A stretch of 64,000 bases of DNA from Protoeuglena noctilucae (taxonomy: Eukaryota), in NCBI GenBank assembly GCA_958009085.1, contig OY253690.1:310001-374000 (forward strand), in the 5' to 3' direction. Positions 40,834-64,000 of the stretch are shown here, one piece after another. Made by a program: the position numbers and the translations under genes. Under the pieces are notes generated by a model. It did no database searches. It was given only the letters and a program-made list of their open reading frames with translations, and had not been told where the DNA came from. Numbering within the stretch: the first letter of the stretch is position 1; each line of letters opens with the position of its first letter.

Positions 40834-41821
40834 GTCACACGAATCCCATCCTGGTGAACGCCGGTCGCCCCACTTGGGACACACTTGCCATCCGCAGTAC
40901 CCACAGTCCACCTGGAAAACTAGTCAGGCAGGGTTGACACCCCCAACTCTGGCCCGTACACGCCATGGCTGTCGGGCTGACGGCACGAATCGCATACTTA
41001 TACAGCTGGTTGTCATAGACGACGTTCGTGCGCTTGTCCACCACGTGTGTCTCCGTGCCCGGCAGCCGAAACGACACCGACACCAGGGGGATGCACAAGT
41101 ACTGGCCCGCCTTCACGACTGACGCATGCCTCCTCAAGGGCATCTTTGTGCCCGACGAGAACATCAACCCTTTCAACACCCTCACCAACGACGGACGCGA
41201 GCAAAGGTGCGCGCAGCTTCCCTTTGCAAACCCGCAGCGCACAGCCGCTCACACTACGACAGACGCTACCCCCTATTCCCCCAAACCCCAGGCATCACCT
41301 CCCTCATCGAGGTCGACAAGAGGTACCGCATTAACACCTCCGCTTTCCAGTCCTCGCCGAGCCCCAACCAGAAGAGCCTCCTCTTGCGCCCACGGCGCGA
41401 CCAAGGCCGACGTGGACCGCATCCTCACCGAGATGACCCACGACGCCGCCACGCCCAAGGCAATCCACGACCTACCCCTGACCCGCGATGACGCTGACGA
41501 TGACTGACGCGTATGCCACTGCATGCCTAGCCCTGCTGCTAACCTCCCATACACGCAATTGACCCTCAAAACCCACATCCTCCTTCATAATCCCTCCTGC
41601 GCGACTAAGCCGGGGGCCTGGGCCCCCCGGTCCTGATGTCTAAGAAGTGGATGTGGATGTGGATGTCAGGGCCCTCGCCAGTGTCTGTGACGGACGTGCC
41701 AGCCTCTAGACGGGGTGCACAATACCTGATTACGCCAGATCCTCGAGGGCACATCATTCCGCGTGCTCACATCATCACCAAGTGCTTCCACATCACTAAA
41801 GCCGCTGGACATAGGGTTTAG

Positions 41822-43827
41822 CTAGTGCTCATTTGGGCCACCACAACATGCCATGATGCGCGCCAGCAGGAAGGCTAACTCGTGGCTCACAAGCTCCCAA
41901 TCCAGCGAGGTTGGGCCAAATGTTTGCATACCGTAGACAGACTCTCGCCGCGACCCCCGCCGGTACGGATGCGGGTTGCCCTCCTGCACCCCGCTGTACA
42001 GGTGCCCGCTGATCTCGCTCAGCATCTGATAATCGTAGAAGTGCCAGTCGGCCGCAAACAGCTCCAGCACCGCCCCGTGCGGCGGCATCCACAGCAGGTT
42101 GGTCAGGCCGTTGCCGTGCACGCCCACCATTAGGTCGACCCCGGCCGACAGCCGCACCTGCTCCTCCACCGTCATGGCCTCGAACCGCACCACCTCAAGC
42201 GCCACCCCGTGCTCCTCCAGCATCACCGACGCCAGCCGCGCCAGGTCCTCGTCGCCCAGCTCCCGCAGGCTCATGGCGCGCCGCACGTACACGGCGCGCA
42301 CCTCGCCGGGGCTCGCGGGCCGGGGCCGGGGGGACGCGCCGGCGGCGGCATGCACGGCGGCCAGGAACTCCGGGAACCACGCCCCCACGACGCCGACCGA
42401 GTGCTCCAGGTGCTTGTTGAGCCTGGCCGCCAACAGCGGCGGGTTGGCGCCGATGCCGTCCTTGGACGCCACCACCGCGGCGAAAAGGTGGACGCGGCCC
42501 TCCGTGACGATCACGGCGCCAGGGAAGAGAGCTGAGACGAAGAAGTCGTGCAGACGGGCATTGTACGAACTGGGGTCCACCACCACGACCAGGGGCTCAC
42601 GACCCGGCCCGTATTCCCGGGTCCAGGCGTAGAGACCCAGGAGACACTCCATGATGTGGTAGTAGTGGCCGTTGCAGAAGGGGTGCTTGTGGTGGAGAAT
42701 GATGCCAAAGTCGACGTCCATCGCCATCGCACTGTTTGAGGTGGCACTTGCCCCCGTGAGCCAGACGTTGTGTCTAAGGTAGAAAACCTGGTCCAGCTCA
42801 TACCCGCCCCTCGGATAGCTTGCTGCGAGGCGCCAGTGCGCCGGGGGTGGCTGCATAAGCCCTGCACTCGCCACCTCGTGCTCTGCATCGGGTAGTCACG
42901 CAGGGCACGTCAGACACTGTGCGGGGTGGCGGGAGCGACGCGCATGCACGTTGTGCCCGCTCTTGGCCCGCACCTGCACGACGCAGGAGCGCCACCCCGT
43001 CTGCTGTAGCAGCGTCGGCCCCTGCCCCAGCCAGGAAGGCCGACACAGCCTCGGCCAGCCTCTCGCCCTTCCACAGACGGAAGGTCAGGGGCTGGGCATG
43101 CCCAGGCAAGGCGACGTCGAATCTGACCAGAGGCATGAAACCCATCTCCAGGGCGGTCGCTTCCATAAGCCCAGTGGCGAACTCCGCTCCACACAGCAAA
43201 TCGCAAGCGCTTTTCTGTGACGCTGGCCTGGCCTTCGGCCTTTTCCAGCTAACATGAAACCCAGTGCTCACACCTCTGAAAGCGTGCCACGAATACGCTC
43301 CGACGCGTCTTCAGTGCCGAAGAGCGGGATTGCGCAGGTCCATTCATTGTGCATAGCGTGGTCAGTGACGAACATGGGCCAAATCATCGTTTCGGGAATC
43401 CGCTTTTCTTCCACGGCCTGCGACGAGCGGGAGGACGTTAGAGTGAGGCAAAGGCCCCCCGGCGCAGCTCGGGGCAGGTCCACATGCACAACATACCCAT
43501 CACCTGGCGCACCGCCTGACGCGTGAGGGAAGCGAAGTGTTCGCATGCTGGGCAAGCTGGGATCCCGTCCAAAAAGCGCTTGAACGCATTGTCCACAAAT
43601 TCGGTGGCCTCCCACGAGAAGTAAAAAGCCTGTCCCGCCACCACGATGCTTGTGGTAAGTTGCCTCACGGCCCCCGCAGCCACAGCAAACAGCCTGCAAG
43701 GTCGAGGTCGATGGGCTTCAGTGGTCCTGTCGACGCTGTGGAAGAAATAGGGTCCCGGACCCCGCGGCGGCGCATCTTACGCGGCGTGGAGCCACAGCAG
43801 GAGGAGCAGCCTGTCACACATCCGCAT
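41822..43827 (-). CDS. GT61-like glycosyltransferase (copy 3)
   Basis: Same catalytic exon as copy 1. N-terminal MRMCDRLLLLLWLHAA. Confidence 0.8.
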
Positions 43828-43974
43828 CAGAGAGAGCAACGCGGCGCAAGGGATGAGGACTACCGGAGGAGGGGGGGGTTCTCGGGGTCGATATCCATCC
43901 TTGAAGGCGGCGAGGACACGCTAGTCGTCCACTGGTCAGGTGAGAAGAGAGCGATCCTCAAGGCATCCGCGAGC

Positions 43975-44174: not shown

Positions 44175-44240
44175 TATCGACCCCGAGAACCCCCCCCTCC
44201 TCCGGTAGTCCTCATCCCTTGCGCCGCGTTGCTCTCTCTG

Positions 44241-46246
44241 ATGCGGATGTGTGACAGGCTGCTCCTCCTGCTGTGGCTCCACGCCGCGTAAGATGCGCCG
44301 CCGCGGGGTCCGGGACCCTATTTCTTCCACAGCGTCGACAGGACCACTGAAGCCCATCGACCTCGACCTTGCAGGCTGTTTGCTGTGGCTGCGGGGGCCG
44401 TGAGGCAACTTACCACAAGCATCGTGGTGGCGGGACAGGCTTTTTACTTCTCGTGGGAGGCCACCGAATTTGTGGACAATGCGTTCAAGCGCTTTTTGGA
44501 CGGGATCCCAGCTTGCCCAGCATGCGAACACTTCGCTTCCCTCACGCGTCAGGCGGTGCGCCAGGTGATGGGTATGTTGTGCATGTGGACCTGCCCCGAG
44601 CTGCGCCGGGGGGCCTTTGCCTCACTCTAACGTCCTCCCGCTCGTCGCAGGCCGTGGAAGAAAAGCGGATTCCCGAAACGATGATTTGGCCCATGTTCGT
44701 CACTGACCACGCTATGCACAATGAATGGACCTGCGCAATCCCGCTCTTCGGCACTGAAGACGCGTCGGAGCGTATTCGTGGCACGCTTTCAGAGGTGTGA
44801 GCACTGGGTTTCATGTTAGCTGGAAAAGGCCGAAGGCCAGGCCAGCGTCACAGAAAAGCGCTTGCGATTTGCTGTGTGGAGCGGAGTTCGCCACTGGGCT
44901 TATGGAAGCGACCGCCCTGGAGATGGGTTTCATGCCTCTGGTCAGATTCGACGTCGCCTTGCCTGGGCATGCCCAGCCCCTGACCTTCCGTCTGTGGAAG
45001 GGCGAGAGGCTGGCCGAGGCTGTGTCGGCCTTCCTGGCTGGGGCAGGGGCCGACGCTGCTACAGCAGACGGGGTGGCGCTCCTGCGTCGTGCAGGTGCGG
45101 GCCAAGAGCGGGCACAACGTGCATGCGCGTCGCTCCCGCCACCCCGCACAGTGTCTGACGTGCCCTGCGTGACTACCCGATGCAGAGCACGAGGTGGCGA
45201 GTGCAGGGCTTATGCAGCCACCCCCGGCGCACTGGCGCCTCGCAGCAAGCTATCCGAGGGGCGGGTATGAGCTGGACCAGGTTTTCTACCTTAGACACAA
45301 CGTCTGGCTCACGGGGGCAAGTGCCACCTCAAACAGTGCGATGGCGATGGACGTCGACTTTGGCATCATTCTCCACCACAAGCACCCCTTCTGCAACGGC
45401 CACTACTACCACATCATGGAGTGTCTCCTGGGTCTCTACGCCTGGACCCGGGAATACGGGCCGGGTCGTGAGCCCCTGGTCGTGGTGGTGGACCCCAGTT
45501 CGTACAATGCCCGTCTGCACGACTTCTTCGTCTCAGCTCTCTTCCCTGGCGCCGTGATCGTCACGGAGGGCCGCGTCCACCTTTTCGCCGCGGTGGTGGC
45601 GTCCAAGGACGGCATCGGCGCCAACCCGCCGCTGTTGGCGGCCAGGCTCAACAAGCACCTGGAGCACTCGGTCGGCGTCGTGGGGGCGTGGTTCCCGGAG
45701 TTCCTGGCCGCCGTGCATGCCGCCGCCGGCGCGTCCCCCCGGCCCCGGCCCGCGAGCCCCGGCGAGGTGCGCGCCGTGTACGTGCGGCGCGCCATGAGCC
45801 TGCGGGAGCTGGGCGACGAGGACCTGGCGCGGCTGGCGTCGGTGATGCTGGAGGAGCACGGGGTGGCGCTTGAGGTGGTGCGGTTCGAGGCCATGACGGT
45901 GGAGGAGCAGGTGCGGCTGTCGGCCGGGGTCGACCTAATGATGGGCGTGTACGGCAACGGCCTGACCAACCTGCTGTGGATGCCGCCGCACGGGGCGGTG
46001 CTGGAGCTGTTTGCGGCCGACTGGCACTTCTACGACTTTCAAGAGCTGAGCGAGATCAGCGGGCACCTGTACAGCGGGGTGCAGGAGGGCAACCCGCATC
46101 CGTACCGGCGGGGGTCGCAGCGAGAGACGCAGTACGGTATGCTAACATTTGGCCCAACCTCGCTGGATTGGGAGCTTGTGAGCCACGAGTTAGCCTTCCT
46201 GCTGGCGCGCATCATGGCATGTTGTGGTGGCCCAAATGAGCACTAG
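44241..46246 (+). CDS. GT61-like glycosyltransferase (copy 4) with the GVHG motif changed to GVYG
   Basis: Mirror of copy 3, but reads LMMGVYGNGL, YDFQELSE and SQRETQYGMLTF. Confidence 0.78.
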
Positions 46247-46576
46247 CTAAACCCTATGTCCAGCGGCTTTAGTGATGTGGAAGCACTTGGTGATGATGTG
46301 AGCACGCGGATGTGCCCCCCCATGCCTGTGTTTCTACGTCGCGATGCATCCTTCAAGCTTATGTCGATCGTCAGTTGCTGCAGCCGTCCCTCGGGGCGCC
46401 TCTCGGGCACCCCTGCGATCCCCGTCTCGGTGCAGCCGTCCCCTTCCGAGGGCGCGGCTGGGTTTGCCCGAGTCATAGGTATGCGTATGCATAGCGGTAC
46501 TCTCCCAGCTGCCATCGCGGTCACAGGATGGGCGTGAAACCCGCGAAAGACGCGCCTCACTCGGAGGACTTAGATC

Positions 46577-49700: not shown

Positions 49701-50189
49701 TAAGCCCATCGCTGCCTCCATAGCGGCCCGCGAGCGCCCTTGGCATCCTGCGCTTGCAGCTGACTTTTCCAGCTCCCGGCGCATTTCTGTGACTTTACGC
49801 TGATCGATACGCGTGCTTCGCTTCCTAGTCCTGCGCTCTGCATCGGCGAAATCGACATCGGACCGCCGAGGTGGCGCCCGGGGTTGGCGCAAGCAGCAGT
49901 GGTGGGGTAAGACCAGCGCCAGCGCAAAACTTTTTTGGCCATTTGGAAAGCTAACGGCGAGACTCGAACTTTCGACGCCTGACGAAAAAGCCCTTTGAAA
50001 CGCGAACTGACAGCGCCGAAAACGCCAGAAAACAACGAAACGACGAAAATCGCCGTTCGAAAACGCGAAATTTCGAACAAGCGCTTCGCGGGACAGACAG
50101 CGGTCGGGGTCGAGGCCACGACCTGCCGACAGGCCACTCTGGAACGCGAAGGGGCATGCAAATTTCCGAACGACCCTCATCCGAATCGG

Positions 50190-50657
50190 ATGCTCCTGGC
50201 TGCGATCATGGGTGCCGCTCGTGACCGACCCGCCTCGATGCCCTTCCATCACCTCGAGCGGCACATCCTGGGGCAACTCGAGCAGAGGCCGCGCCACGGA
50301 TACACCATGGAGAGGGCGCGTGGGTTCCTCGCGTCGGAGCAGGGCCAGGCGTTCATGGCGTACGCGTACTGCCTCGACAGCTGGCACCGGTTCCGGCCCA
50401 TCGTGGACTACTGCAGGGGGGTGCGCATCCGGGAGTCCTTGGAGGATCGGGTGGGGCGCGATGGGGACGATGGGTTGGGGTGCATGCTGTGCCATGGAGA
50501 GATCGGTCCATCTCCCGCTGCATTCTTGCCCTGCGGGCACAGGGTCTGCTGCCGCAAGTGCAGGGATGATGTGTACCACTTGATCAAGGCCAGATGCCCG
50601 AAGTGCTGCCAGCGCATCTTCCAGTACGCCATCCGTGTGAAGAATTCACAGATGTAG
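50190..50657 (+). CDS. C3HC4 RING-finger protein (155 aa, intronless)
   Basis: CMLC...PCGHRVCCRKC...CPKC. Confidence 0.8.
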   Translation: MLLAAIMGAARDRPASMPFHHLERHILGQLEQRPRHGYTMERARGFLASEQGQAFMAYAYCLDSWHRFRPIVDYCRGVRIRESLEDRVGRDGDDGLGCMLCHGEIGPSPAAFLPCGHRVCCRKCRDDVYHLIKARCPKCCQRIFQYAIRVKNSQM

Positions 50658-51507: not shown

Positions 51508-52668
51508 TCACTCCGTCTGGGCCAGCTCGCCCGTCTCGGTGTCGATCGAGATGGACTTCGTCACCTCCAACGCCACGAGCAGCATCGAGGCGGCCGTGGT
51601 GCCGGCCACGTGGATGACCAGGGGCGAGGCGATGTCGTACGTCGACGTCCCGGACACCAGGTTCGTCGCGGCCGCCCCGGGGAGCTGCATGTTGTACACG
51701 CTCGCCCAGAACTCCGACCGCCAGTTGTTCGTCGTGACGTTCAGGCTCTGGATCCCGCCCACGCCGGAGGGACCGTCCTGGGCCAGCGCCATGTCCGTGG
51801 CGGTCCGGATCTCGTGCTTGGCCTCCTGGAGAGCCCACCCGTTCAGCAGCATGCCGCCGAGTTCGGCGTTGATGGTCCCGGCCGTCTCGAAGGTGCTCAG
51901 GTAGAACTTGCTGGTCGTGGTCTGGAACGCTGGGTCCACGCGGAAGGTGATGATCTTGTCCAGGCTCAGAGTCGCCTTCGTCATCGGAAAGTCGATGCTC
52001 GTCGTGAAGCTCGGCGAGACGAAGCTCGAGAAGTGCTTGAAGGGTAGCTTGAACTGCTTCACCGAACGCAGCGCCCGGCGGTACGTGTCCTGGGCGAATT
52101 GCACACAGTCCATGACCAGGTACGCGTTCGAGACGCCGGCCACCGTGCCGCCCGTCGCCGTGCCGATCACGTTGGGGTCCGCCAGCTGGAGCTGGAGCAC
52201 TGTGTTTCGGAAGAGCGAGAAGTCCATGTACCGGTTGTGGCTGCCGGACAGCGCCCCGTAGGCGAATCCCTGGACGACGGCGGGGCCGTTGAAGGCGTCG
52301 ACGGCGAATGTCTGCGGCAGCGCCGACTGGCGGTACGTGGGCCAGGTCAGCTGCTTGAGCTGGCTGACCACCTTCCCGTACCGCTGCAGCTGGGTGACCG
52401 AGTACCCGGAGACGGAGACGTCGACCTGCTGGATGATGGCGTCGGCCACGGGGATCGAGTACGCCGTCGTGCCGGCGTTCATCGAGAACTCGAAGTAGAT
52501 CTTCAGCGAGCGCAGGTCCGCGATCACGGGGGGGATGTTGAAGACGACCGACTCGCCGGCCGCCTTCACGCCGGACGCCGTCCACGGCACCCGGATCGTG
52601 GAGCGGCTGATGTCGTCCATCAGCCGCTGTGCCCGGAAGCTGAGGACCTTGGGGAGTGCGTCGGACAT
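51508..52668 (-). CDS. Putative double jelly-roll major capsid protein (386 aa)
   Basis: MSDALPKVLSF...GESVVFNIPPVIADLRSLKIYF...IIQQVDVSVSG...LQLQLAD...VTKSISID. Size, beta-rich pattern and context fit Polinton-like virus MCPs. Confidence 0.75.
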   Translation of the reverse strand: MSDALPKVLSFRAQRLMDDISRSTIRVPWTASGVKAAGESVVFNIPPVIADLRSLKIYFEFSMNAGTTAYSIPVADAIIQQVDVSVSGYSVTQLQRYGKVVSQLKQLTWPTYRQSALPQTFAVDAFNGPAVVQGFAYGALSGSHNRYMDFSLFRNTVLQLQLADPNVIGTATGGTVAGVSNAYLVMDCVQFAQDTYRRALRSVKQFKLPFKHFSSFVSPSFTTSIDFPMTKATLSLDKIITFRVDPAFQTTTSKFYLSTFETAGTINAELGGMLLNGWALQEAKHEIRTATDMALAQDGPSGVGGIQSLNVTTNNWRSEFWASVYNMQLPGAAATNLVSGTSTYDIASPLVIHVAGTTAASMLLVALEVTKSISIDTETGELAQTE

Positions 52669-52711
52669 GGGCTTCTGCCGGTCCGGCAGAGAAAAAAAGC
52701 GGTGCGACGCG

Positions 52712-53686
52712 TCATTCCTTGGCCCGTTTGATCTCGTCACGCCGCAGCAGCCGGCGCGTCCCGGAGACCCGGTAGCTCCCGCCATCCACCTGCTTGACGA
52801 CCCGCGGCGTGACGTCCCAGACCCCCTTCGACCGCTTCGACAGCGGCCCCTGCGCGCTCGGGAGCATGACGAGCACGCGGTCGCCCTCGCGGATCGGGTT
52901 CTCCTCGGGGGGCCCTGGCTCGCCGACCCTGCGGTAGGCGCGCAAGATCCGGAGCTCCTCCCCTTGCGCCGCCCTCTGCCAGGTCTTCCCCCACATGGGC
53001 GCGTCGGCCGCCTCGTTCGGCGGCATGCCCGTCGTCGCGTTGTCCCGCTTGTTGTACGCCGTGACGACGTCCGCGAACACCTCCCTCCACGTAGGGTTCT
53101 GCTTCAGCTTCTGGCGCCGCGCCATGACGTGGGCGGTCTTCGTCCGCAGCACTCGGATCATGGCCTCGACCTGCGGCGCGTGCTGCTGGACGATCAGGCG
53201 GATGCCCCGCTCCTTCAGGAACGCCCGCCCCTCGTTCGACGACCACGCCCCCTCGCCGTCCGCGATGATGCAGTCCCACTTGTGTCCCTCGTCCAGGATC
53301 TTGCCCAGCCCCTTCAGCACCTGGTCCCTCTCCTTGGACTGCAGGTCCTCGTAGTACAGCTTGCGGCTGAGGCCGTCGACGACCAGCAGCAGGTACTTGG
53401 AAGCCGCGCCCTTCGTGAAGACCTTGTTCAGGCCCAGGTCCTCGTTGGTCCTCGCGAAGTCGATCAGGTCCATCGACGCCTCGCGGCCGCCGTAGCGGGC
53501 GGGGATGATCCTGCGCGTGGGGGCGTCGGGCTTGTCGAACGGGGTGTCGGTCTTGGCGAGGTGCGCCTCGACGTCCTGCGCGGTCACGTTCCCGTTCAGC
53601 CTCTTCTTCGCTTCCACCAGGAGCTGCTTCTGGCCAGTGACCCCCTCGTCCTGCAGCTTGTTCAGGACCTCCTCGATGCTGGTCAT
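52712..53686 (-). CDS. Retroviral-type (rve) DDE integrase, Polinton/Maverick-like (324 aa)
   Basis: SMDLIDF, KYLLLVVDGLSRK, IIADGEG, QVEAMIRVL, WREVFADVVTAYNKRDNATTGMPP and IREGDRVLV. Confidence 0.92.
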   Translation of the reverse strand: MTSIEEVLNKLQDEGVTGQKQLLVEAKKRLNGNVTAQDVEAHLAKTDTPFDKPDAPTRRIIPARYGGREASMDLIDFARTNEDLGLNKVFTKGAASKYLLLVVDGLSRKLYYEDLQSKERDQVLKGLGKILDEGHKWDCIIADGEGAWSSNEGRAFLKERGIRLIVQQHAPQVEAMIRVLRTKTAHVMARRQKLKQNPTWREVFADVVTAYNKRDNATTGMPPNEAADAPMWGKTWQRAAQGEELRILRAYRRVGEPGPPEENPIREGDRVLVMLPSAQGPLSKRSKGVWDVTPRVVKQVDGGSYRVSGTRRLLRRDEIKRAKE

Positions 53687-53739
53687 CCGTGTCTCTTCAA
53701 GGGAGCGCAGAGAAAAAGGGGGGTTTGTCTACACAGCGC

Positions 53740-56700
53740 CTAGGACTTCTTCTGCAGCGCACCGAAGGGCGCGTTGCACCCGCGGCACGCCGGGCGCAGG
53801 TCGGTCTGGCTCGGGTCGTGGGCGGCCTGGTCGTCGATGCGGTCGAGCTCGAGCAGGGCGATGTCCGTGCACCCGCACGCCAGGCACCGGAAGCCGTGGC
53901 GCTTGAAGAGCTCGTGGATCTCCGACGCCGTGACGCCGCGTCCGGGGCGCCCCGCGTCCTTGTCCTGCTGGTTCAGCCGCTTAGCCATGGCGTCGAAGTG
54001 CTTGTGGAAGCCCCCGCTGACCTCGGCGTGGTCGATGGCGATCCGGAGCTGGTCCAGGTCCTTGCACCGCGTGATGGCCGTCCACACGAGGCGGTCATTG
54101 TTTGGCCAGTCGGCGCTCCAAGCGAGCACGATGTCCTTCTCGATCGTCGACCCCTGGAGCGCGTGGCTCGTGTAGCCCCCCTCGATGCGGAAGTTGCGCC
54201 GCACCTCTTCCATGCTGCGGAACGTGACCTCGACATCGTCCTCGGCCGCGAACGTCACCTGCCCGGACTCGTCGACGTCGGTGATCTCGTACGTCTCGTT
54301 CATGATGAAACTGCTGAAGCGCTTGGTATCCCCCTTGAACACCCACCTCCCCCCGGTTTGCGCCGCGTCCTTGTCCCTCCGGTTGACGGCGTGGCACGCG
54401 TACGCGTTGCTGGCGGCCACGACGATCTCCTTGGCGGTGTCGATGTTGGCGACCGTGCATGTCGGGATCCCAAACTTCTTGGCGAACGTGACGGGGTCCA
54501 GGGTCTGGCCCGAGTCGATGTGATCCTTCATGGCGAGGAGCTTGGCGTGCTGCTGCTTCGGCAGTCGCTTCATGACCAGGAGGAGGCACTGGACGGGGAA
54601 GAGCTGACGCACCGCGTCCTCGTATAGCGCGTCGTTGTGGGCGTCGTCGATGGGCTTGTTCTGGCGCGGGTCGCCCGTCGCGATGAAGCGGATCTCCGGG
54701 TGCTCCTCTATGTCCCGCTTCAGCACCTCCAGCACGGGCAGCGGCATCATGTAGATCTCGTCGATCATGACGGCCTTGAGCCCCTCGATCTTGTACCCGG
54801 GCCGGCGGACCTTCTGGTCGAAGACGCGCTGGCCGAACCACTTGGTGGCCGTGTACGTACGCCACCCGGCCTTCCGGTGCCCCTTCAGCAGCATGTGGGT
54901 GGGGGCCACGACCACCGACTCCTCGGGCTTCAGGTTCTTGAGGGCCGTCCACGTCTTGCCGCTCCCGGGCAGGTCCGAGACGATGGCGATACGGTGGTGG
55001 GCCGAGAGGTCGATGCCCGCCTTTTCCTCGTCTGCCGTGAACGTGAGCCGCTGGACGGGGCTCGGCGCCGGCGCCGCCATCTGGTACAGCCGGGTCGCCG
55101 TCGGGTCCATCGTGTAGCTCTTCGACAGGAGCTGCTGGCGCTTCGTGGGCCAGATGCCGTGGGGGGTCGCCGCCCGCCGCGTGGGGGGCTTGAAGGACCC
55201 GATGTCGCGGACGGACGGGTGGGGGTCATCCGGCTCTGTCACGGGCTCCATCGTGGGCGTCGCGGGCGGCGGCTGGACGGGCACCGCGATCCACGGCGTC
55301 CGGGTGAGCATGTCTGGGTCGGCGATGAACTCGTCGCCCGGCTCGGTGCAATCGTCGTCGTCGTCCTCGTCGGCCTCCGCTGCCCCGCCCATGTCGAGGG
55401 GGAGGTCTCGCACGTACAGCTCGTCGACATTGACCCCGAGGACCCCGTAGGCCTGGAGGTCGAAGGCCTTCTCCGCGAGCAGGGTCTGGGCCATGCAATA
55501 GACGGCGTCCTGGACCAGCGTCCACCCGTTGTTCGCCGGGACGCTCTTGTGGAACGCCATCAGCGTCCACCTCTTGTCGACCTGGGTCTTGTCGCCGCTG
55601 AGGAGGTCCTCCAGCATCAGCTGGCCCAGCTTGGGCATTTCTGCCCGCTTGCCCTTGGCGGCGTGCCCGACCTTGACGACGTGGCCCCCGTCCTTGGCGT
55701 GGTCGCGGGCGGCATACGCCTGCCGCGGGACCGTGCAGAGGAAGCCCTTGGTGACCTTCGACGCCTTGCGCCCCGACGTCCCGATGGCGGCGTTGACCAT
55801 GTGCTTCTTCTGCCCGTCGGTCAGCCCGTCGCTCGTGAGGACGGCGTCGACGTGGCGGCGGGCGCGGAGCACGAGCGTCTCCTTCGGGCACAGCTCTACC
55901 ACGGGCGTGGCGGTCTCGCCCGTCTTGTCCCTCCAACGCTTGAGCTGCCACCCCATCTTGCGGCTGACCTTCCCGCGCCAGAACAGCTTCCCGTGTGGCG
56001 TGTCGAGGTGCTCGAGCGGGACGTCGACGATGTAGGCGGTGTCCTCGAGGATCTCCGCGTCGGGCTGCACGAGCGTGGGGAGGCAGAAGGTCGACAGCAC
56101 CATGACGGGCAGGGGCTCGCGGAGGATGGACGTGTAGAAGCGACGGATGTCCAGCGCGTAGAAGCGGTCGGGGATCTCGTCTACGAGCTCGATCCGAGCG
56201 GCGGGGACGGGCTGGGCCGCGTCGACGACGTTGAAGAGCATCGCGCCGGCTGCCTCGCACCACTCTGAGTAGGCCCTCGGTGGGCACACCGCCTTGAGCA
56301 GTCGCGTGTTGAGCTCCTCGTACAGGTACCCGTTCTCGGCGCCCTTGAGCTGGAGGGCGTCCTCGAACACCTCGTCGCTCCTCTCCGGCAGCGTCACCGT
56401 CACGCGGGCGCGCTCCTTGCGGTCGTCGCCGACGGCGTACTGGATCCACCACGTGAAGCCCGTCACCCGCTCGCCCTTGTGGTGTACCTCGAGGACCTGG
56501 TGACCCAGCTCCCGCAGGCGGTGAATCATGGCCATCAGGTGCTCGAACGACGGGCACAGGTAGCGGCCCGGCGCCTTGACGGCGAGGAGCTCCTCGGCGG
56601 TCTCGAGGCGGCCGTGGAGGATCGAAGCCCCCCGCGGAGGCGCGATGGCCCGAGGCGGCTCGGGGAGCACCGACTCGGGGACCGTCCGCAGTGGCACCAC

Positions 56701-58228
56701 CTTGTCGCCCTGGACGCGGAAGCGGCGGGCCACGCTCATGCGGACGACGGGCCACGCGTGGTTGTCGTGCACGAGGATGACGACCATCCTGGGGGCGGCC
56801 CTGTCCGACTTCTCCGACATCGTCACCTTGACCTTGCCCCGCTTCGTGCACGTCATGGACACCGTCACGGCCTTGCGCACGCCCGAGTCGAGGACGAGGC
56901 CGCTCCACGCCTCGACGACGGCCACGTTGCAGACGCCCTGGAACGCGGGCACGATCTTGTCCCCCGGGATGGCCTTGCCCTTGAGCGTCTCGAGGACGGC
57001 GAGGTACTCCGTGTGCCGCTCCTCGCACTGCATCCTGGCCGCCTCGTAGACGCACCCCTCCGACGGGCACGCCTTGGCCACGGGCGGTTTCTCCACGTCG
57101 TATGGGGTCAGCTCGCAGTTGAGCCACGACTTGTCGGGGTCCGCGACGACCATGTTGCGGAGCCCGAAGCCCACGTACCACGGCCCGATGGCCTCGATCC
57201 TGATGCACGCGCCGTCCGAGCTCGACCCCGAGTCGTGGTGCTTGTAGCGGTCCAGCCGCTCGAGCAGGTCGGGCGCCACCGTCTTGAGCGTCGTCGACAG
57301 CTCGGACGACGTCTCGGCCTCGAAGGCGGGCTGGTCGGCCTCGTCGGTCGGGACGGGAGATCTTGTACACGTGGCCGACCTGGAGCCCCAGCTCCTCGAT
57401 GCGTTTGGTCACGGGCACCTCGGCCGCCCCCGACTTCCACCGCCACGCGCACAGGTGCTCGCCGTCGACGACAAGGAGCTCGACCGTCTCGATGTTCCTG
57501 TCGACGACCTGCATCCAGTCCTGTCGCATCAGGGCCGCCGCGTTCTTGTGTCCGAGCGCCTCGCGGAGCTCCTCCGTCGTCTGGGGGTTGCCGAGGACCG
57601 CGTACGCCGTGGCGTCGCCCCGCCGCCCCGAGACCACGTGGGCGTCGAGGTTGACGAACCCGTAGACCTGGAAGCCCACGCCGCGGATCTTCGACTCCGT
57701 CTCGGCCCGCGCCCGCGCCCGCTTCGCCGACTCGAGCTCGAGGACCACGTAGCGACCCGGCCCCTTGCGGTTGACCGTGTAGCCGGCGGGGAGCTCGAGG
57801 ACGGCCTTGGCCTCGTCGAGCGTCTGGGGGTCGGCCTGGCGGAGCGCCGCGTTGGCGCCGCGGACGTCGAGGGGCTGCCGCGCCTCGTCGCCCTTGCGGT
57901 AGAAGACGGGCCCCTGCTCTTGCGGCTGGTCCGGCTCGTGGGCCTGGATCCTCCCCCCCTCGAAGACCTGCCGCGCCTGCTCCTGGAAGCGCTCGACGCG
58001 CTTCTCGCGGACGGTCGGCTTCCGCACGCGCCACGGCGCGCCGTCGCCTTCTCGAGCCACCGTGTAGCCCTCGGGCAGGCCGTCCGGAAAGCGCGCGAGG
58101 ACGGCCTCCCGCGTCGTGTCGGGTGGCAAGCGCTCGAGGTCCCGGTTGATCGTGTCGAGCGATCGGGATTCGACCTGGCCGATCGTCCGGCCGGTCACGC
58201 GCTGGAATCTCGTCGACGGCTTGGGCAT
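53740..58228 (-). CDS. Replication polyprotein: N-terminal domain, vOTU-like protease, divergent family B polymerase, SF1 helicase and HNH-like domain; one frameshift near 57356
   Basis: GCVYEAA...ILVHDNHAW; ALDIRRFYTSIL, KKHMVNAAIGTSG, GVNVDELYV; DLPGSGKT, MIDEIY, GDPRQNKP, TSHALQGSTI, WTAITR; CLACGC...LDRIDDQAAH...ACRGCN. Confidence 0.85.
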
Positions 58229-58476
58229 GGCTCCTCGACCTCAACTCCACGCAATGCGTTGATTTTCTGCGCTACAGCGAGGGCCGAAAATTCTCGCGGG
58301 GGCCGGCCGCGGGGCACGGGGCCCACCACGCCCTCCCCGAGCATCTCGCGCGCCCGCTTCCGGAGGCGGTACAGCCGCTGCGCCACGCGCTTGTACTCGT
58401 CCCGCCCCGCCTCGCCGGCCTGCCGCATCAGGGCGGCCTCCAGGTGGAGGAAGGCGCCGAGCGTTAGCGTCAGCAT
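58195..58476 (-). CDS. Small basic hypothetical protein with an AT-hook-like PRGRP
   Basis: YRLRKRARE...PRGRPPR. Overlaps the polymerase start by 34 nt. Confidence 0.5.
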   Translation of the reverse strand: MLTLTLGAFLHLEAALMRQAGEAGRDEYKRVAQRLYRLRKRAREMLGEGVVGPVPRGRPPREFSALAVAQKINALRGVEVEEPCPSRRRDSSA

Positions 58477-58548
58477 GTCGTTCGTCTCACCAGATACACG
58501 TTGTCTTGGAAAAAAGAACTCGTTCGCCGGGGGCGCCTTTTCCGGGGT

Positions 58549-59061
58549 TCACCAGTCGCCGTACGCGGTCCGGATGTACAGCCGGGGGTCGTCGCGCCGG
58601 GCGGCCTCCTGCAGGCGGTGGATCACCTTGGGGCGGTCCTCCGGGGCGGCCTCTGCGTACACCGGGTCCTCGCGGATCGCGGGGACCTTGCGCTCCCGGA
58701 TCGCCGCGAGCCGGGCCCGGGCCTCCGTCAGCCGCTTCTCGACGTCGTGCTCGCGCGCCCTCACCTCGAGCTCTCGGGCCTCCAGCTCGTTTTTAAGCAC
58801 GTTAAGCTCCGCGATGGTGACGTTTCGAGACTGTTCCGACAGAGCCTTCCGGACCGTCGACGGGGGCGGCCCTGACCCCGACTGAGCCTTCTTCGCCGCC
58901 AGCGCCTCGCGGGCCTTCGCCGCTCGCTCGCGCATGAGCGCCAACTGGGCCGCGTCCCGCTTCGGCTCGTCGGTTGGCTCGGGGGCCGCGGCGTCGTCAG
59001 AAACATCTGGCGTTTCAGGCTCGGGCGCGGGGGCCGGGGGCGCTGACTTCTTTATCGCCAT
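58549..59061 (-). CDS. Coiled-coil hypothetical protein (170 aa)
   Basis: AQLALMRERAAKAREALAAKK and a heptad-rich ELEARELEVRAREHDVEKRL. Confidence 0.7.
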   Translation of the reverse strand: MAIKKSAPPAPAPEPETPDVSDDAAAPEPTDEPKRDAAQLALMRERAAKAREALAAKKAQSGSGPPPSTVRKALSEQSRNVTIAELNVLKNELEARELEVRAREHDVEKRLTEARARLAAIRERKVPAIREDPVYAEAAPEDRPKVIHRLQEAARRDDPRLYIRTAYGDW

Positions 59062-59079
59062 CTGTCCCTGACTTAGAAT

Positions 59080-59472
59080 TTAATCCAGGAACACCTCCCG
59101 GATCGTCAACAAGATGATCGTGTCGGCCGTCCGGTTCGCGGCGACCCCGTCGACGTCGACGAAGCTCAGCGTCAGCGTCGTGCCCCCAGTGAAGCGGCAG
59201 ATGTACGGGAGGGTCGGCCTGGTGATCTGGCCCCCCGCGATGACCCTCCGCCCGCCCCCGGTCCGCAGGTCGTTGCTCACGTTGGGCACCAGGTCGTAGC
59301 TGACGAGCAGGTCCGTGGCCCGGGTGTCCCCGACGACCGTCTCGATGATGACCTGCAGCTGGCTCCGGCGCGCCTCGAAGCGGCTCACGGGGTCGTACGG
59401 AAGGACGCACGCGTTCGAGCCGCTCGGGACGTACCCGGCGTAGCTGTAGGTAGCGATGGGGCCGCCGTCCAT
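59080..59472 (-). CDS. Small beta-rich protein, possible minor capsid (penton)-like (130 aa)
   Basis: C-terminal LTLSFVDVDG...IILLTIRE pattern resembles jelly-roll minor capsid termini. Supported by context. Confidence 0.5.
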   Translation of the reverse strand: MDGGPIATYSYAGYVPSGSNACVLPYDPVSRFEARRSQLQVIIETVVGDTRATDLLVSYDLVPNVSNDLRTGGGRRVIAGGQITRPTLPYICRFTGGTTLTLSFVDVDGVAANRTADTIILLTIREVFLD

Positions 59473-59495
59473 TTTCCCTGGCGCTAGAGAATAAG

Positions 59496-62400
59496 ATGGC
59501 GGCGTGGAACGGCGTCTACGCGCGCCAGCTGGTCGTCGACGACGCGGGCGCCGCGGACGGCGACTACTTCAAGTACCAGGCCGCCACGCGCAAGCTCGTC
59601 ACCGACAAGGGCGCGCTCTCCGGGCGCGTGATGGCCCTCGAGACGGCCATGTCGACCGTGGGCTCGAGCGGCGGGACGGTGACGCAGGGCCCCGCGGGGA
59701 CCGTCGCAGTGGGCTCCGTGACGACGGGCTCGAGCGCCAGCGTGACGAACTCCGGGACCCCCACCAGCGCAGTGCTGGACTTCGTGCTGCCCCGCGGCGC
59801 TCCAGGCGCCTCGGCGACGATCGCCGTCAGCTCGACGACGACGTACGGGAACGCGGCCACGCCGGTGGCCGTGGTCAACGCGGGCACGCCGCAGGCGGCC
59901 GAGCTCCAGTTCACCTTCCCGGACCTGAACGCGCTCGTCAACCCGGACGAGTCGGTGCAGGCGTACCACGACCAGCTCGTCACGGACCTGAACGTGCAGA
60001 TCAACGAGAGTTTCTTCGGCCCGATCTGGGACGCCATCCCCGGGTCCGAGACGCTCCCGCAGAACATGACGGACGGCGAGCTCATCTCGGCCATCCAGGC
60101 GGTGCGGCTGGCCAACTACTTGTACGGGAAGCTGAAGGGGATGCTCAACGCCCGCAAGGAGCTCGAGGCGCAGATGTCGGCTTTGTCGGAGTTCTTCGTC
60201 AAGTTCGACGCCCCGCCCGGGGCCTTCGCCCTCTTCAAAGGGTACCAGACGGGCACGTGCGACGGCGCCTTCTACTGGCAGCGGACCCAGCGCTTCCAGG
60301 ACCCCGTCGCCCCGCTCCGCTGCCTGGCCGACAACGGCGACGTCCTCGTCGAGATGACGAAGCAGCCGAGCTACAGCTTCTCGCTGTACGGTCCCCCCCT
60401 CGAGCTCGCCTCCACGCAGGCCGGCGCCAGCTCCAGCTACACCAGCCTCAGCCACCCCGCGACGCTCCGGACGACGGGCGACACGGTGACGGTGAAGTCG
60501 GCGGCGGGGCAGCTCCTCGTGACGGACACGGGCGTCGTGGCGAGCGACAAGCTGACCGTGTCGGGGGCTTCCCCCAGCCTGGTGGTGGCGGGCGCGGACC
60601 AGGCCCCGCTGCTGACGGCGTCGGCGACGGCGGCCACGTCGACCGTCGAGAGCCTCGTGCCGCTCACGATCAAGTCGACGGCGTCGCCGACGCTGACCGT
60701 CGCGAGCGAGGACCCCCTCGTCGACCCGCTGCTGAAGGTGGCGGCCACGGACGGGGTGAACTCCCTGTCGCTCAGCTCGAGCGCCGTGGCGGGCTACATC
60801 GAGTCGTCGAACGACCTGTCCGTCAAGTGCGGCGGGACCGTCGTCATGACGGCGGGGCCCACGGGCGTCAGCATGCTGGGGTCCACGCTCAGCACCGAGG
60901 AGACGACGATGATCATCCACTCGGCGGACGCCGACTGCGTCAGCTTCACGCCGACCGAGACGGTCTTCTCGGCCGCGCCGATCGTGTGCCAGTCGGCGTA
61001 CTACGTCTCGGTCGACCCCGCCAGCAAGCTGGTGACCCAGGCCCAGCTCGACGAGCAGAAGGCCAAGACGAGCACGACGACGGGCTCGGACGTCGCGTCG
61101 TCGGCCGCCAACCTGGGCGGCGACCTCGGCACGCTCTTCGGCTCGAGCTTCGACTCGCTCGGGGCCGCCGCCGTCGGCGCCATGGGGGGCGCCATGGCGG
61201 CCGTGGGGCTCAGCATCCGCAGCGGCACGGACCCGGGGACGGGGGCCACCACGTACCAGGTGGTCCAGCAGCCCGTGTCGGGCGGCATCGCCGTCGAGCG
61301 CATCCTGATGTTCGACACGAACCCGCTGGCCCCCTCGCTCGTGTACGTCATGGACGCCACGGGCCTGGACTGGGCGTACGTCAAGAACGTTCCGGCCGCC
61401 ATCGCGGGGTACACGGGGACGATCGCGGAGTCGCAGGTCACCGGGCTGGTCGCGGACCTCGCGGCCAAGCTCGACGCCTCCACGGGGGTGATAGCGCAGA
61501 GCCAGGTGACGGGCCTCACGTCCGCATTAGCCGGCAAGCTCGACGCGGCAACGGGCACGATCGCGGAGTCGCAGGTCACGGGACTGGTCGCGGACCTGGC
61601 CTCCAAGCTCGACGCCTCCACGGGGACCATCGCCCAGAGCCAGGTCACGGGGCTGACGGCCGCCTTGGCGGGGTACACGGGGACGATCGCGGAGTCGCAG
61701 GTCACCGGGCTTGTCGCGGACCTGGCCTCCAAGCTCGACGCCTCCACGGGGACCATTGCCCAGAGCCAGGTCACGGGGCTGACGGCCGCCTTGGCCGGCA
61801 AGCTCGACGCGGCCACGGGCACGATCGCGGAGTCGCAGGTGACGGGGTTGACGAGCGATCTCCAGGGCATCAACAGCCAGCTAGCCAGCCTGGGGGCCAG
61901 CTCGGCGGGCGTGGGGGTCAGCAAGCTGGACGTCGAGACGGTCACGACGAACGGAGCGACGCTGAGCCTGACGAAGTCGAGCTACTTCGCGCCCGGTATC
62001 GTCACGCCCACGGGCTTCTTCCCCGGCGTGCACGGGTTCGCCATGACCTACCCCGCGAACCTGGCCCAAAACAACGGGGGCCAGATCAACGCCTCGGCCG
62101 TCGACGCATCGGGCAACTTGTATGTGTGCGTGTACACCGCGATGGGCTCCTCGACGACGACGAACTACATCAAGAGCCTCAACGGGGACACGAGCCTCCA
62201 GGTCGCGGTGAACGACGCCAACTCTTCGGGCGCCGCGCCGTACGTGGCCAAGTTCGACCCGACCGGCACCCTCTTGTGGGCGTGGAAGCCCCTCGACAAC
62301 CACTCGACCGTCTCCTCGAACAACGCCACATGCGTCGGCGTGGAGGTGCAGTCCAACGGGCACATCCAGTATGTCTTCAGCCTCCACTTCGGGGACTTCG

Positions 62401-64000
62401 ACTCGTTCAACCCGGACGGGACTCTTCGGACGTCCGGCTTCGTCAGCGACCGATGCATCGATTACGTGCAGCTCACCGTGAATAGCGCGGGGGCCATCGT
62501 GTCCTTCACCACGCCGGTCTCGACGAACGTCGGGGCGGCCACGGGATACAACGCCTGGTTCCCCGAGACGATGGCGTGGAACGGCAAGACCCTCATGAGC
62601 ATCACCACGGCGTGGGGACCCAACGCGTACACGACCTCGCCCACCCGGCTCTACTTCGGCAACACGGGGCCAATCGGCTACTACAACGCCGCCTTCGTGT
62701 ACCTGAACGATGACGCCGTCGCCATGATGGCCAACCCGATCCAGCTCACGGCGTCGAGCGAGCAGCTCGAGGTGGCCGGGATGACCACCGACTCGTCCAA
62801 CAACCTCTTCGTCAGCCTGCTGTACTACGGCGGCGGGGGCTCCCGCACCATCAACAACCTCTCGAGCAACTCGTCCTCTGGGCACACCGTCACCCTCCCG
62901 GCCGCGTGGTGCAACGTCGTCCTCTGGTACAATTCGTCCGGCGTGTACGTGGGCACGCCGCTCATGATCACCACCAACGCGAACGCCATGCTCGACATCG
63001 AGTGCGACGGCTCCGGAAACATCTACGGCTATTGGGCCACGTCGGACGCGAGCGTCACCGTCGGCGGCGTCACCGCCACCAGCAAGTACACGCCGTCCGG
63101 GTGGCTGGTCAAGTTCACGCCGACGGGCACCGTGAGCAAGCTCGCCTCGTGCATCGACGCCTCCGCCCTGAGCAGCACGTGGTTGGACTACAACCGGCGG
63201 CTCATGTTCGACGCCACCAACGGCCTCATGTTCCTCTGCCTCCAATGGGGCGGGACGGCGACGGGGACGGCCCTCACCAACCTCGACGGCTCCGCGAGCT
63301 CCGTCGTGAGCCCCAACCGTCCCGGCGGGACCGGCGCGAGCATCTTCGCCCTCAACTGCTCCACCGACAAGTGGGTTTTCGCCTTCACGCCGCTCGGGGT
63401 GGCGACCGGCCACCTCACGTCCGTGTACCAGAGCTACCGCGCGGCCCACGGCAAGCTCCTCGTCAACGGCTACGTCTCGACGGACCAGACGTCCTTGCAG
63501 GTGTACAACGGAGACAAGACGTCCACCACCTCCCTCACGACGGACTCGGCCGCGTACGGCAACTCGACGTACCAGCCCCTCCTCCTCGCCTACTCGTACA
63601 ACGCCACGCCCATGTCGGCCACGCTCCCGCTCCCGTCGCCGTCGTCGGGCAACTTCCTCGAGAAGACGCTGATCATGCAGCCGGGGCTGTCGTACGTGCT
63701 GACGGAGCAGAACAACGCGGGCGACAACACCCGGACCATCCCCACGGCGGCGACGGGCCTCACGGTCGTCCAGTACTACTACGCCGGCGACGCGTGGAGC
63801 CCCGACTTCTCCACCGTCGACCTCGTCAACACCGTCGTCTACGACAGCTCCTCCACCACCACAACCGTCTCCAACACGGACGCCGCCACGCTCAACGGCC
63901 TCGCCTCGAGCCAGTTCGTGAGGTCCGACGTGGCGTCGGGCGTGTCGTGCGCCTCGTCGACCCGGGCCTTCGCCGTAAACAACCAGGCGGGCGGTTTCCA
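59496..64000 (+). CDS. Giant fibre/receptor-binding-like protein (>1500 aa, open at the window end)
   Basis: ATG 59496 (MAAWNGVYARQLVVDD...) with no stop to 64000. Contains VAVGSVTTGSSASVTNSGTPTSAVLDFVLPRG, 7x IA(E/Q)SQVTGL repeats, AVDASGNLYV/TDSSNNLFV/CDGSGNIY blades and DAATLNGLASSQFVRSD. Confidence 0.85.
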   Translation, partial: MAAWNGVYARQLVVDDAGAADGDYFKYQAATRKLVTDKGALSGRVMALETAMSTVGSSGGTVTQGPAGTVAVGSVTTGSSASVTNSGTPTSAVLDFVLPRGAPGASATIAVSSTTTYGNAATPVAVVNAGTPQAAELQFTFPDLNALVNPDESVQAYHDQLVTDLNVQINESFFGPIWDAIPGSETLPQNMTDGELISAIQAVRLANYLYGKLKGMLNARKELEAQMSALSEFFVKFDAPPGAFALFKGYQTGTCDGAFYWQRTQRFQDPVAPLRCLADNGDVLVEMTKQPSYSFSLYGPPLELASTQAGASSSYTSLSHPATLRTTGDTVTVKSAAGQLLVTDTGVVASDKLTVSGASPSLVVAGADQAPLLTASATAATSTVESLVPLTIKSTASPTLTVASEDPLVDPLLKVAATDGVNSLSLSSSAVAGYIESSNDLSVKCGGTVVMTAGPTGVSMLGSTLSTEETTMIIHSADADCVSFTPTETVFSAAPIVCQSAYYVSVDPASKLVTQAQLDEQKAKTSTTTGSDVASSAANLGGDLGTLFGSSFDSLGAAAVGAMGGAMAAVGLSIRSGTDPGTGATTYQVVQQPVSGGIAVERILMFDTNPLAPSLVYVMDATGLDWAYVKNVPAAIAGYTGTIAESQVTGLVADLAAKLDASTGVIAQSQVTGLTSALAGKLDAATGTIAESQVTGLVADLASKLDASTGTIAQSQVTGLTAALAGYTGTIAESQVTGLVADLASKLDASTGTIAQSQVTGLTAALAGKLDAATGTIAESQVTGLTSDLQGINSQLASLGASSAGVGVSKLDVETVTTNGATLSLTKSSYFAPGIVTPTGFFPGVHGFAMTYPANLAQNNGGQINASAVDASGNLYVCVYTAMGSSTTTNYIKSLNGDTSLQVAVNDANSSGAAPYVAKFDPTGTLLWAWKPLDNHSTVSSNNATCVGVEVQSNGHIQYVFSLHFGDFDSFNPDGTLRTSGFVSDRCIDYVQLTVNSAGAIVSFTTPVSTNVGAATGYNAWFPETMAWNGKTLMSITTAWGPNAYTTSPTRLYFGNTGPIGYYNAAFVYLNDDAVAMMANPIQLTASSEQLEVAGMTTDSSNNLFVSLLYYGGGGSRTINNLSSNSSSGHTVTLPAAWCNVVLWYNSSGVYVGTPLMITTNANAMLDIECDGSGNIYGYWATSDASVTVGGVTATSKYTPSGWLVKFTPTGTVSKLASCIDASALSSTWLDYNRRLMFDATNGLMFLCLQWGGTATGTALTNLDGSASSVVSPNRPGGTGASIFALNCSTDKWVFAFTPLGVATGHLTSVYQSYRAAHGKLLVNGYVSTDQTSLQVYNGDKTSTTSLTTDSAAYGNSTYQPLLLAYSYNATPMSATLPLPSPSSGNFLEKTLIMQPGLSYVLTEQNNAGDNTRTIPTAATGLTVVQYYYAGDAWSPDFSTVDLVNTVVYDSSSTTTTVSNTDAATLNGLASSQFVRSDVASGVSCASSTRAFAVNNQAGGF
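61410..61862 (+). repeat. Coding tandem repeat, 7 units (mostly 69 nt / 23 aa, one 57 nt)
   Basis: TGTIAESQVTGLVADLASKLDAS alternating with TGTIAQSQVTGLTAALAGKLDAA. Confidence 0.9.

Follow-up and report, generated by a model that had tools for sequence, protein, structure and literature searches.

Fusions of a family B DNA polymerase (PolB) with a superfamily 1 (SF1) helicase are placed among the usual replication genes of polinton-like viruses (PLVs) in part of a 2026 preprint, and their construction is described in portions of two other papers. The first of these, PMC5499653, from 2016, treats the proteins as Tlr1-like helicases that lack both an exonuclease domain and motif 4, that end in an HNH domain in PLVs and in a GIY-YIG domain in Tlr1, and whose polymerase is argued to be inactivated. 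HHpred alignments in its supplement match the named members to PF03175 or PHA02563, pairing 'DINKCYGS' of PLV-SAF5 with 'DVNSLYPS' of PF03175, 'KLMINMISG' with 'KLLLNSLYG', and 'QINTDS' of a transpoviron with 'YCDTDS'. The second, PMC11161782, uses AlphaFold models to define a TP-vOTU-PALM-S1H organisation (terminal protein, viral OTU-like protease, polymerase palm and SF1 helicase), with TPR1/TPR2, an OTU Cys and His that are conserved, and N-terminal domains that vary greatly. According to the same sections, the protein-primed family B polymerases (pPolBs) of these pPolB-S1H fusions have lost the Exo domain and the first Asp of DTD, an HNH or GIY-YIG domain lies at the C-terminus, and the palm is argued to be active, the first Asp being equally missing from active polymerases (mavirus, pipolins and others). 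Here we compare with these systems a gene on the minus strand of a 64,000-nucleotide stretch of DNA from Protoeuglena noctilucae (contig OY253690.1, positions 310,001 to 374,000), the whole of which is referred to below as the window.

We consider it likely that this locus is the replication gene of an endogenous PLV of the 'Tlr1-like helicase' or pPolB-S1H family, residing in the GC-rich, intron-bearing genome of a marine eukaryote; the copy seen here is probably disabled. The predicted domain order is a variable N-terminus in the position of the priming protein, a viral OTU-like cysteine protease, a pPolB, an SF1B helicase and an HNH-type nuclease, and the polymerase would be a protein-primed family B enzyme without an exonuclease domain and without the first Asp of motif C, both having been lost. 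This order, which a sequence-only reading of the window had already set out, agrees with the organisation published in the cited parts of PMC11161782 and PMC5499653. The same reading went too far in calling the architecture highly divergent, as those sources make the layout standard for many PLVs; what is new is, as judged from the sequence, a very divergent and GC-rich member of the family, divergent in sequence and not in layout.

Overall architecture and relatives

Two overlapping open reading frames (ORFs) on the minus strand make up the gene, one at 55226-58228 (ATG start, 1000 aa) and one at 53740-57279 (GTG start, 1179 aa, P0001), and the motif residues named below are numbered in the latter. 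Over about 290 residues (to about codon 295) the first looks like ordinary protein, and beyond that like the Arg/Gly/Pro-rich off-frame text that is typical of wrong-frame reading in GC-rich DNA; the second reads as ordinary protein over its whole length. In the frame of the first (frame A), the fraction of G and C at third codon positions (GC3) is 0.90-0.98 between 58200 and about 57360; in that of the second (frame B) it is 0.90-1.00 between about 57357 and 53740. Written in codons, the switch is ...AAG ATC TCC / C / GTC CCG ACC...; 291 codons of frame A and 1204 codons of frame B together give 1495 residues. The sequence-only reading had proposed a single polyprotein of this size. Its length is reproduced, only by joining the two frames across a +1 shift, which makes the 1495-residue protein a reconstruction; there is no one open frame, the break being present in DNA and RNA contigs alike. 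The coordinates of all features are collected in Table 1.

Relatives were found with the helicase part of the protein, namely P0011 (1205 aa; BLASTP 5e-21 in the helicase, with a weak co-linear match along the N-terminal half) and a group of AT-rich, multi-copy proteins about 1380 aa long (P0012 and others). Among longer proteins a helicase profile listed 33, comprising the window protein itself, P0011, P0041, 29 of the P0012 kind and one unrelated bacterial MobF relaxase, and a metagenome scan for relatives confirmed 7 of 178 candidate stretches, including loci L005 and L006. Scans of IMG/VR for relatives gave 10, 51, 51, 2 and 4 candidate stretches, none of which was confirmed. P0011, the P0012 group, P0041, L005 and L006 have a common co-linear layout, and in a helicase tree the window protein forms a very long branch of atypical composition. 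Two of these relatives have features of their own: the stretch L005:540-3497 carries the layout from N-terminus to helicase in one open frame that starts with 2-cysteine adaptor repeats (Pfam 2C_adapt, E 1.6e-4), and P0041 (1309 aa) has a GIY-YIG-like end (GLIYRNVN...KVYVGQ) in place of HNH, as described for Tlr1.

The helicase and the C-terminal end

The C-terminal domain (residues ~755-1080) is firmly assigned from its sequence as an SF1B helicase of the Pif1/RecD/Dda-like type. Pfam AAA_30 matches residues 760-880 (E 2.1e-5), the PHROG match of this part is a Dda-like helicase, and the family profile finds Pif1-like 5FTB (1.4e-11), RecD2 (7e-8) and Dda (2e-6) in the PDB. The motifs GSGKT, VVAPT, DEIYM, ATGDPRQ, KR, TSHALQGST and WTAITR align in all lineages, bearing out the complete set of motifs I-VI that had been read from the sequence. 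An NCBIfam search of the replicase returned only a sub-threshold recD match.

Behind the helicase, at residues ~1125-1172, lies a Cys/His-rich tail for which a C-terminal HNH-type nuclease is weakly indicated. The PHROG matches of the tail are endonuclease VII (E 0.0017) and HNH (E 0.038), and the pattern CxxC...[DQ]RxD[DN]xxxH...CxxCN is common to the window protein, the P0012 group and L006; a PDB sequence search with the tail gave spurious matches only. The HNH-like end of the sequence-only reading thus finds weak backing in these two E values and the recurring pattern.

The polymerase-like region

Between residues ~340 and ~700 the protein carries PolB-like motifs A, B and C at the places where they had first been noticed, with a single Asp in motif C. 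In an alignment of 19 rows over the N-terminal 748 residues (A8) the invariant columns are S338, D377, F398, P465, K492, G500 and D619, and N496 is nearly so. The family forms are D-x4-[YF]-[ST] for motif A (DINKCYS in P0011), K-x3-N-x3-G for motif B and V-[KN]-[TSV]-D for motif C, followed by I-G-x-[WF]-[KR], and the DIRRFYTS, KHMVNAAIG and VNVDE of the window protein have the same forms as the named members in the cited supplement of PMC5499653.

Profiles of pPolBs, from four phages and then as 39 non-redundant proteins from IMG/VR, were compared with the family by hhalign. The best local match paired motif A with DVNSLYP in one run and motif C plus LGxWxxE in another. Motif B with its preceding helix scored 24.8 (probability 1.4%), which none of 30 column-shuffled controls attained (maximum 20.6). 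In one extended path, motif B, motif C with the helix that precedes it, and LGxWKxE are all paired, with motif A one element out of register. As a lead only, the ESM Atlas places residues 1-640 near clusters of DNA_pol_B_2 (0.93 and 0.92, with 179 and 177 shared features); it also gives Pox_F12L at 0.85.

Several results weigh against the identification of this protein as a PLV replicase. None of the sequence tools returned a significant match to a polymerase or to an OTU protease. The hhalign probabilities against the pPolB profiles range from 0.1 to 1.8% and are not significant. No polymerase family occurs among the Pfam matches listed for 16 family members (25 of 30 families), nor a polymerase among the PHROG matches listed for 19 (25 of 28 families), and PDB sequence searches gave no polymerase or OTU match, with none of any kind for the whole protein. 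A palm-region HMM against four phage pPolBs, and the reverse comparison, reached -0.1 and 1.8 bits, below the top shuffles at 5.3 and 5.2. With residues 1-640 as query, phmmer against 1.84 billion representatives returned only the protein itself and a tandem-repeat artefact (P0010), and single-sequence AlphaFold of the same residues was unusable (mean pLDDT 33.5, pTM 0.24). To these may be added that the HNH call depends on the E value of 0.0017 and a Cys/His pattern, which is weak; that the tie to the named Tlr1-like helicases is by layout and motifs, the relatives compared being metagenome and genome proteins; and that the full protein might never be made from a frame-broken copy. A word-based search with residues 1-700 likewise found only the protein itself.

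It could be argued from the want of any significant profile or HMM match to a polymerase that the middle region is unrelated to PolB, the motifs being due to chance in an SF1 helicase with unrelated N-terminal domains. We regard this as improbable, as the four motif regions are ordered and spaced like those of pPolBs and sit on the only invariant columns, hhalign chose the motifs independently, the Atlas lead points the same way, and the published HHpred and AlphaFold work on members with the same motif forms (parts of PMC11161782 and PMC5499653) speaks for a polymerase. The PolB reading of the sequence-only account accordingly stands in one respect, the conservation of its motifs across divergent relatives, and is marginal in the other, its statistical support. 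We retain a putative PolB assignment, on invariant motifs, marginal profile comparisons, the Atlas lead and the literature.

A different question is whether such a polymerase would work. Motif C reads GVNVDE, with NVD in place of DTD and the first Asp lost; no KxY motif 4 is assignable; and a 60-residue acidic and Pro-rich insert, absent from the relatives, follows motif C, where an acidic/Pro linker had been noticed from the sequence. As had also been observed from the sequence, Exo I-III are missing: the N-terminal half has no exonuclease family match in Pfam or PHROG, the 12-row alignment A6 has no invariant column between H174 and D377, and the PHROG 'exonuclease V' matches fall on the helicase (residues 996-1074). 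A protein of this kind might be a helicase (plus nuclease) with a catalytically dead, structural PolB remnant, which is the family reading of 2016, and inactivation is argued in parts of PMC5499653. On balance we find this rather unlikely. D377, K492, N496, G500 and D619 are retained in very divergent lineages, suggesting selection on catalysis, and the relevant sections of PMC11161782 predict activity and point to active mavirus and pipolin polymerases that also lack the first Asp. The conserved Asp of motif A, Lys/Asn/Gly of motif B and second Asp of motif C would agree with the more recent view of the exonuclease-less palm as an active polymerase.

The Cys/His region and the N-terminus

Upstream of the polymerase-like region lie the two motifs GCVYEAA and ILVHDNHAW that had been read as a protease-like Cys/His pair, and both were located where they had been placed. 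The His is H174 (LVHDNHAW), invariant in 12 of 12 rows of A6 and in the sole segment that hhalign aligned with any confidence. The catalytic Cys is ambiguous between two candidates: MAFFT puts the family Cys on C117 (QGVCNV), and the extended hhalign path puts it on C76 (EGCVYEAA), for which the Cys-His spacing is 98, against 85-104 in the relatives. For the N-terminal 291 residues there was no Pfam or PHROG match, and a comparison with the N-termini of the relatives and with phage terminal proteins gave nothing below E 0.4.

The frame break and the transcript

The two frames might be thought to be two genes, a stand-alone terminal-protein-like protein and an OTU-Pol-helicase protein, since in some polintons and in adenoviruses the terminal-protein domain is reported to be split from the OTU domain (in a section of PMC11161782). 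The sequence around the switch makes this most improbable. No stop codon interrupts frame A near the junction, and frame B lacks any ATG ahead of residue 43 and is open for just 18 codons upstream of the switch. The coding signal moves between the frames with no interruption, and a single ORF holds the N-terminal region together with the remainder in L005, P0011 and the P0012 group.

Contigs from all four of four public runs were placed on window positions 53000-59500. A marine metatranscriptome run (X1) gave a contig of 4994 nt that spans 53601-58266; contigs of a DNA-type run (X4), which is possibly the window's own source, cover 53209-59500; both have no other letters and no gaps. Contigs from a run labelled with a cultured organism (X5) cover the locus in the same manner, again with no other letters or gaps, at a word depth of 285. 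As X1, X4 and X5 are letter-identical at the site, the extra base is real in the DNA and RNA-library contigs of three studies, and an assembly error was rejected on this agreement. A small frame-restoring intron was rejected too, because in both frames the coding bias holds up to the switch and the RNA contig shows no splicing at that point.

Such contigs give neither transcript ends nor levels, and an RNA library may contain DNA; the metatranscriptome contig is taken as real RNA because it has two exact GT..AG joints. The frame-broken gene is transcribed, as a spliced mRNA. Removal of the 224-nt intron deletes an upstream ATG at 58476, so that by in-silico splicing the ATG at 58228, which opens frame A, becomes the first of the 4994-nt contig and the 366-nt leader is free of ATG. 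The 112-nt intron sits within a 170-aa upstream ORF (58549-59061). Introns in the leader are unusual for an endogenous viral element, as Bellas et al. report in part of PMC10120064 that such viruses have none. A further joint in X1, 57722/58095 with 29 foreign letters, was discarded as noise, the records sharing only GC-rich stretches of about 18 nt with the locus. Window positions 56990-57229 also recur as an identical 240-nt contig, at depth 2.3, in a run labelled with a second organism (X14), which could be carry-over or a shared element.

Since the break of one base falls between the N-terminal domain and the OTU region, normal translation is not expected to yield the full protein, and the likely explanation is a disabling one-base change in an endogenised copy that was disabled recently. 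Bypass of the break, by programmed +1 frameshifting at AUC-UCC-C-GUC or some other recoding, would yield the 1495-residue replicase at a set ratio to the N-terminal product. Frame B is intact for 1204 codons and keeps all family-invariant residues, the spliced mRNA has the frame A start as its first ATG, the identical break occurs in the contigs of three studies, and the codon that the zero frame reads after the shift, CGU, is a rare one that accounts for 8 of the 186 Arg codons in the element genes; all these points would suit such a mechanism. Rare off-frame codons are, however, to be expected after any indel at a GC3 of 0.96. In known programmed shifts the zero frame stops shortly after the site, whereas here it continues for about 710 nonsense codons to the stop at 55226. 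The idea that a stimulatory RNA structure, or an RNA family already described, marks the site was rejected: no stable structure was found 3' of it (z = 0.10; 97 of 200 shuffles fold as well), and a search of window 53500-59500 against Rfam gave nothing at E up to 1. Fragmented replicases are moreover common in endogenised PLVs, as in the P0012-kind relative L007:2992-7061, whose two ORFs (744 and 595 aa) are split between motifs B and C, and in OmPLV, whose replicase genes are described as fragmented in part of PMC12721341. We therefore give recoding little credence and prefer a recently disabled copy. Very improbable is the fuller picture of a replicase that is alive, recoded and adapted to its host, in which the two introns would make the leader AUG-free, translation would start at 58228 and a +1 shift at UCC-C-GUC would set the amount of full-length OTU-polymerase-helicase; if true, a PLV would for the first time be described with a recoding signal and with a spliced leader.

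Genomic context

Directly 3' of the replicase lies an rve/DDE integrase gene, and L006 keeps the order of helicase-HNH then integrase (30% identity, E 4e-11). The next ORF, of 387 aa, is a candidate double jelly-roll capsid gene as a lead from the ESM Atlas only, where Capsid_N or Capsid_NCLDV occurs in 12-18% of the members of the nearby clusters; it had no Pfam or PHROG match, and of three candidate stretches in IMG/VR none was confirmed. Element genes have a GC3 of 0.95-0.97; the genes that flank them, for glycosyltransferase and methyltransferase, have 0.81-0.85. The element extends past the end of the window, within which neither a packaging ATPase nor a penton gene or terminal repeat was found.

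On the other side of the replicase a fibre-like ORF of more than 1500 aa (59496-63998, plus strand) runs past the window end; it contains tandem units of about 23 residues (TGTIAESQVTGLVADLASKLDAS), with repeats at 61393-61846, and matches a PHROG of unknown family (6.8e-13) and a 'minor head protein' (1.1e-9). A 130-aa ORF between this gene and the replicase (59080-59472, minus strand; GC3 0.96), strand-rich and with no family match, could be a small capsid or penton-type protein. An ORF at 49995-50657 on the plus strand, with a RING-finger-like Cys/His end (CMLCHGE...PCGHRVCCRKC...CPKCC), may stand at the left edge of the element. The remaining window has GT-rich microsatellites and duplicated glycosyltransferase family 61 (GT61) genes, like a eukaryotic nuclear genome. 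A 2136-nt inverted duplication at 41758-43893 and 44175-46310 (99% identity) carries GT61 genes, with more copies at 13.6-14.9 kb and 24.5-25.4 kb.

Table 1. Features of the replicase locus and the adjoining genes, in window coordinates
Feature	Position	Strand	Basis
Frame A (291 codons), N-terminal domain at the place of the variable/terminal-protein region	57356..58228	-	GC3 0.95
Frame B (1204 codons; stop 53740-53742), with the Cys/His and PolB-like regions, the helicase and the HNH-like end	53743..57354	-	
Frame break, T-C-C-C run, frame A to frame B (+1)	57355..57358	-	Codon-by-codon GC3; identical letters in RNA and DNA contigs
vOTU-like region	56752..57057	-	Cys candidates C76 (57054-57052) or C117 (56931-56929); His H174 (56760-56758); GCVYEAA 57057-57037; ILVHDNHAW 56778-56752
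pPolB palm/fingers-like region	55189..56151	-	Motif A D377 (DIRRFYTS 56151-56128); motif B K492/N496/G500 (KKHMVNAAIG 55809-55780); motif C D619 (GVNVDELY 55437-55414); then IGSFK
Acidic and Pro-rich insert between motif C and IGSFK	55210..55386	-	Gap in the relatives' alignment rows; acidic run 55377-55351
SF1B helicase core, motifs I to VI	54064..54972	-	Pfam AAA_30; PHROG Dda-like; family profile against PDB; motif alignment; Walker A LPGSGKT 54972-54952; WTAITRC 54084-54064
HNH/endonuclease VII-like end, CxxC...DRIDDxxxH...CxxCN	53773..53886	-	PHROG; pattern common to P0012 group and L006; CLACGC...LDRIDDQAAH...CRGCN 53886-53773
First exon piece of RNA contig, 5' leader	58765..58930	-	X1 contig; overlaps 170-aa upstream ORF
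Intron, 112 nt, GT..AG	58653..58764	-	Joint 58652/58765, CT..AC on plus strand; GTGAGG...CGCAG
Second exon piece, 5' leader	58491..58652	-	X1 contig
Intron, 224 nt, GT..AG	58267..58490	-	Absent from X1 RNA contig
rve/DDE integrase, directly 3' of replicase	52712..53686	-	Pfam rve E 0.0043; NCBIfam IS481-family E 2.8e-7, residues 5-225
Candidate double jelly-roll capsid gene, 387-aa ORF	51508..52671	-	ESM Atlas 0.98, 220-223 shared features; lead only

Comparison with described replicases

If the locus is what we take it to be, its working can be outlined from the family, from which each of the following steps is drawn. The N-terminal part would supply a hydroxyl side chain for priming, and the OTU domain would then cleave the priming part off. 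The exonuclease-less palm would copy the linear genome without proofreading, with the fused helicase, of 5'-3' polarity, unwinding the duplex ahead of it. The HNH module may be the remnant of a homing endonuclease, and the adjoining rve integrase would insert the element.

The locus leaves the picture of how such replicases are constructed unchanged. With it the PolB-helicase fusion replicases of PLVs gain a lineage both very divergent and very rich in GC, and one that illustrates how sequence searches miss such genes, 640 residues having gone unmatched in 1.84 billion proteins. It is also an endogenous copy seen as spliced mRNA in metatranscriptome contigs despite its frame break.

Closest are the Tlr1-like helicases or pPolB-S1H proteins of PLVs (PLV-SAF5, the Bigelowiella natans PLVs, and the YSL and ACE PLVs), of 1000-1400+ residues. 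These have the same variable N-terminus, Cys/His OTU-like region, motifs A, B and C minus the first Asp of motif C and no exonuclease, then a C-terminal SF1 helicase followed by HNH, and they too lie beside capsid genes in an integrating element, the capsid gene being a candidate here. The window protein differs from them in its extreme sequence divergence, the acidic/Pro insert after motif C, a GC3 of 96% and the broken frame. The Tlr1 replicase of Tetrahymena thermophila has the same PolB-helicase order and an rve integrase in its element, but its C-terminus is GIY-YIG, by the account in PMC5499653, whereas that of the window protein appears to be HNH. Transpoviron helicases, which are mimivirus-associated, are the same fused TP/vOTU/palm/S1H protein in the description given in part of PMC11161782; transpovirons have no capsid genes, unlike the window element with its candidate capsid gene and integrase.

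More distant are the pPolBs of canonical Polintons/Mavericks and adenoviruses. They share the protein-primed PolB motifs, and those of polintons also an N-terminal TP and vOTU, but they keep ExoI-III and DTD (YxDTDS) and have no fused helicase, where the window protein has no Exo signature and reads GVNVDE. The SF1-pPolB of OmPLV from Oxyrrhis marina, as described in sections of PMC12721341, resembles the window protein in its size of about 1500 residues, in its fusion of SF1 helicase and pPolB, and in belonging to an endogenised PLV in which the gene is often fragmented; it differs in placing the helicase first, in possessing a complete exonuclease domain and in being reported as transcriptionally silent.

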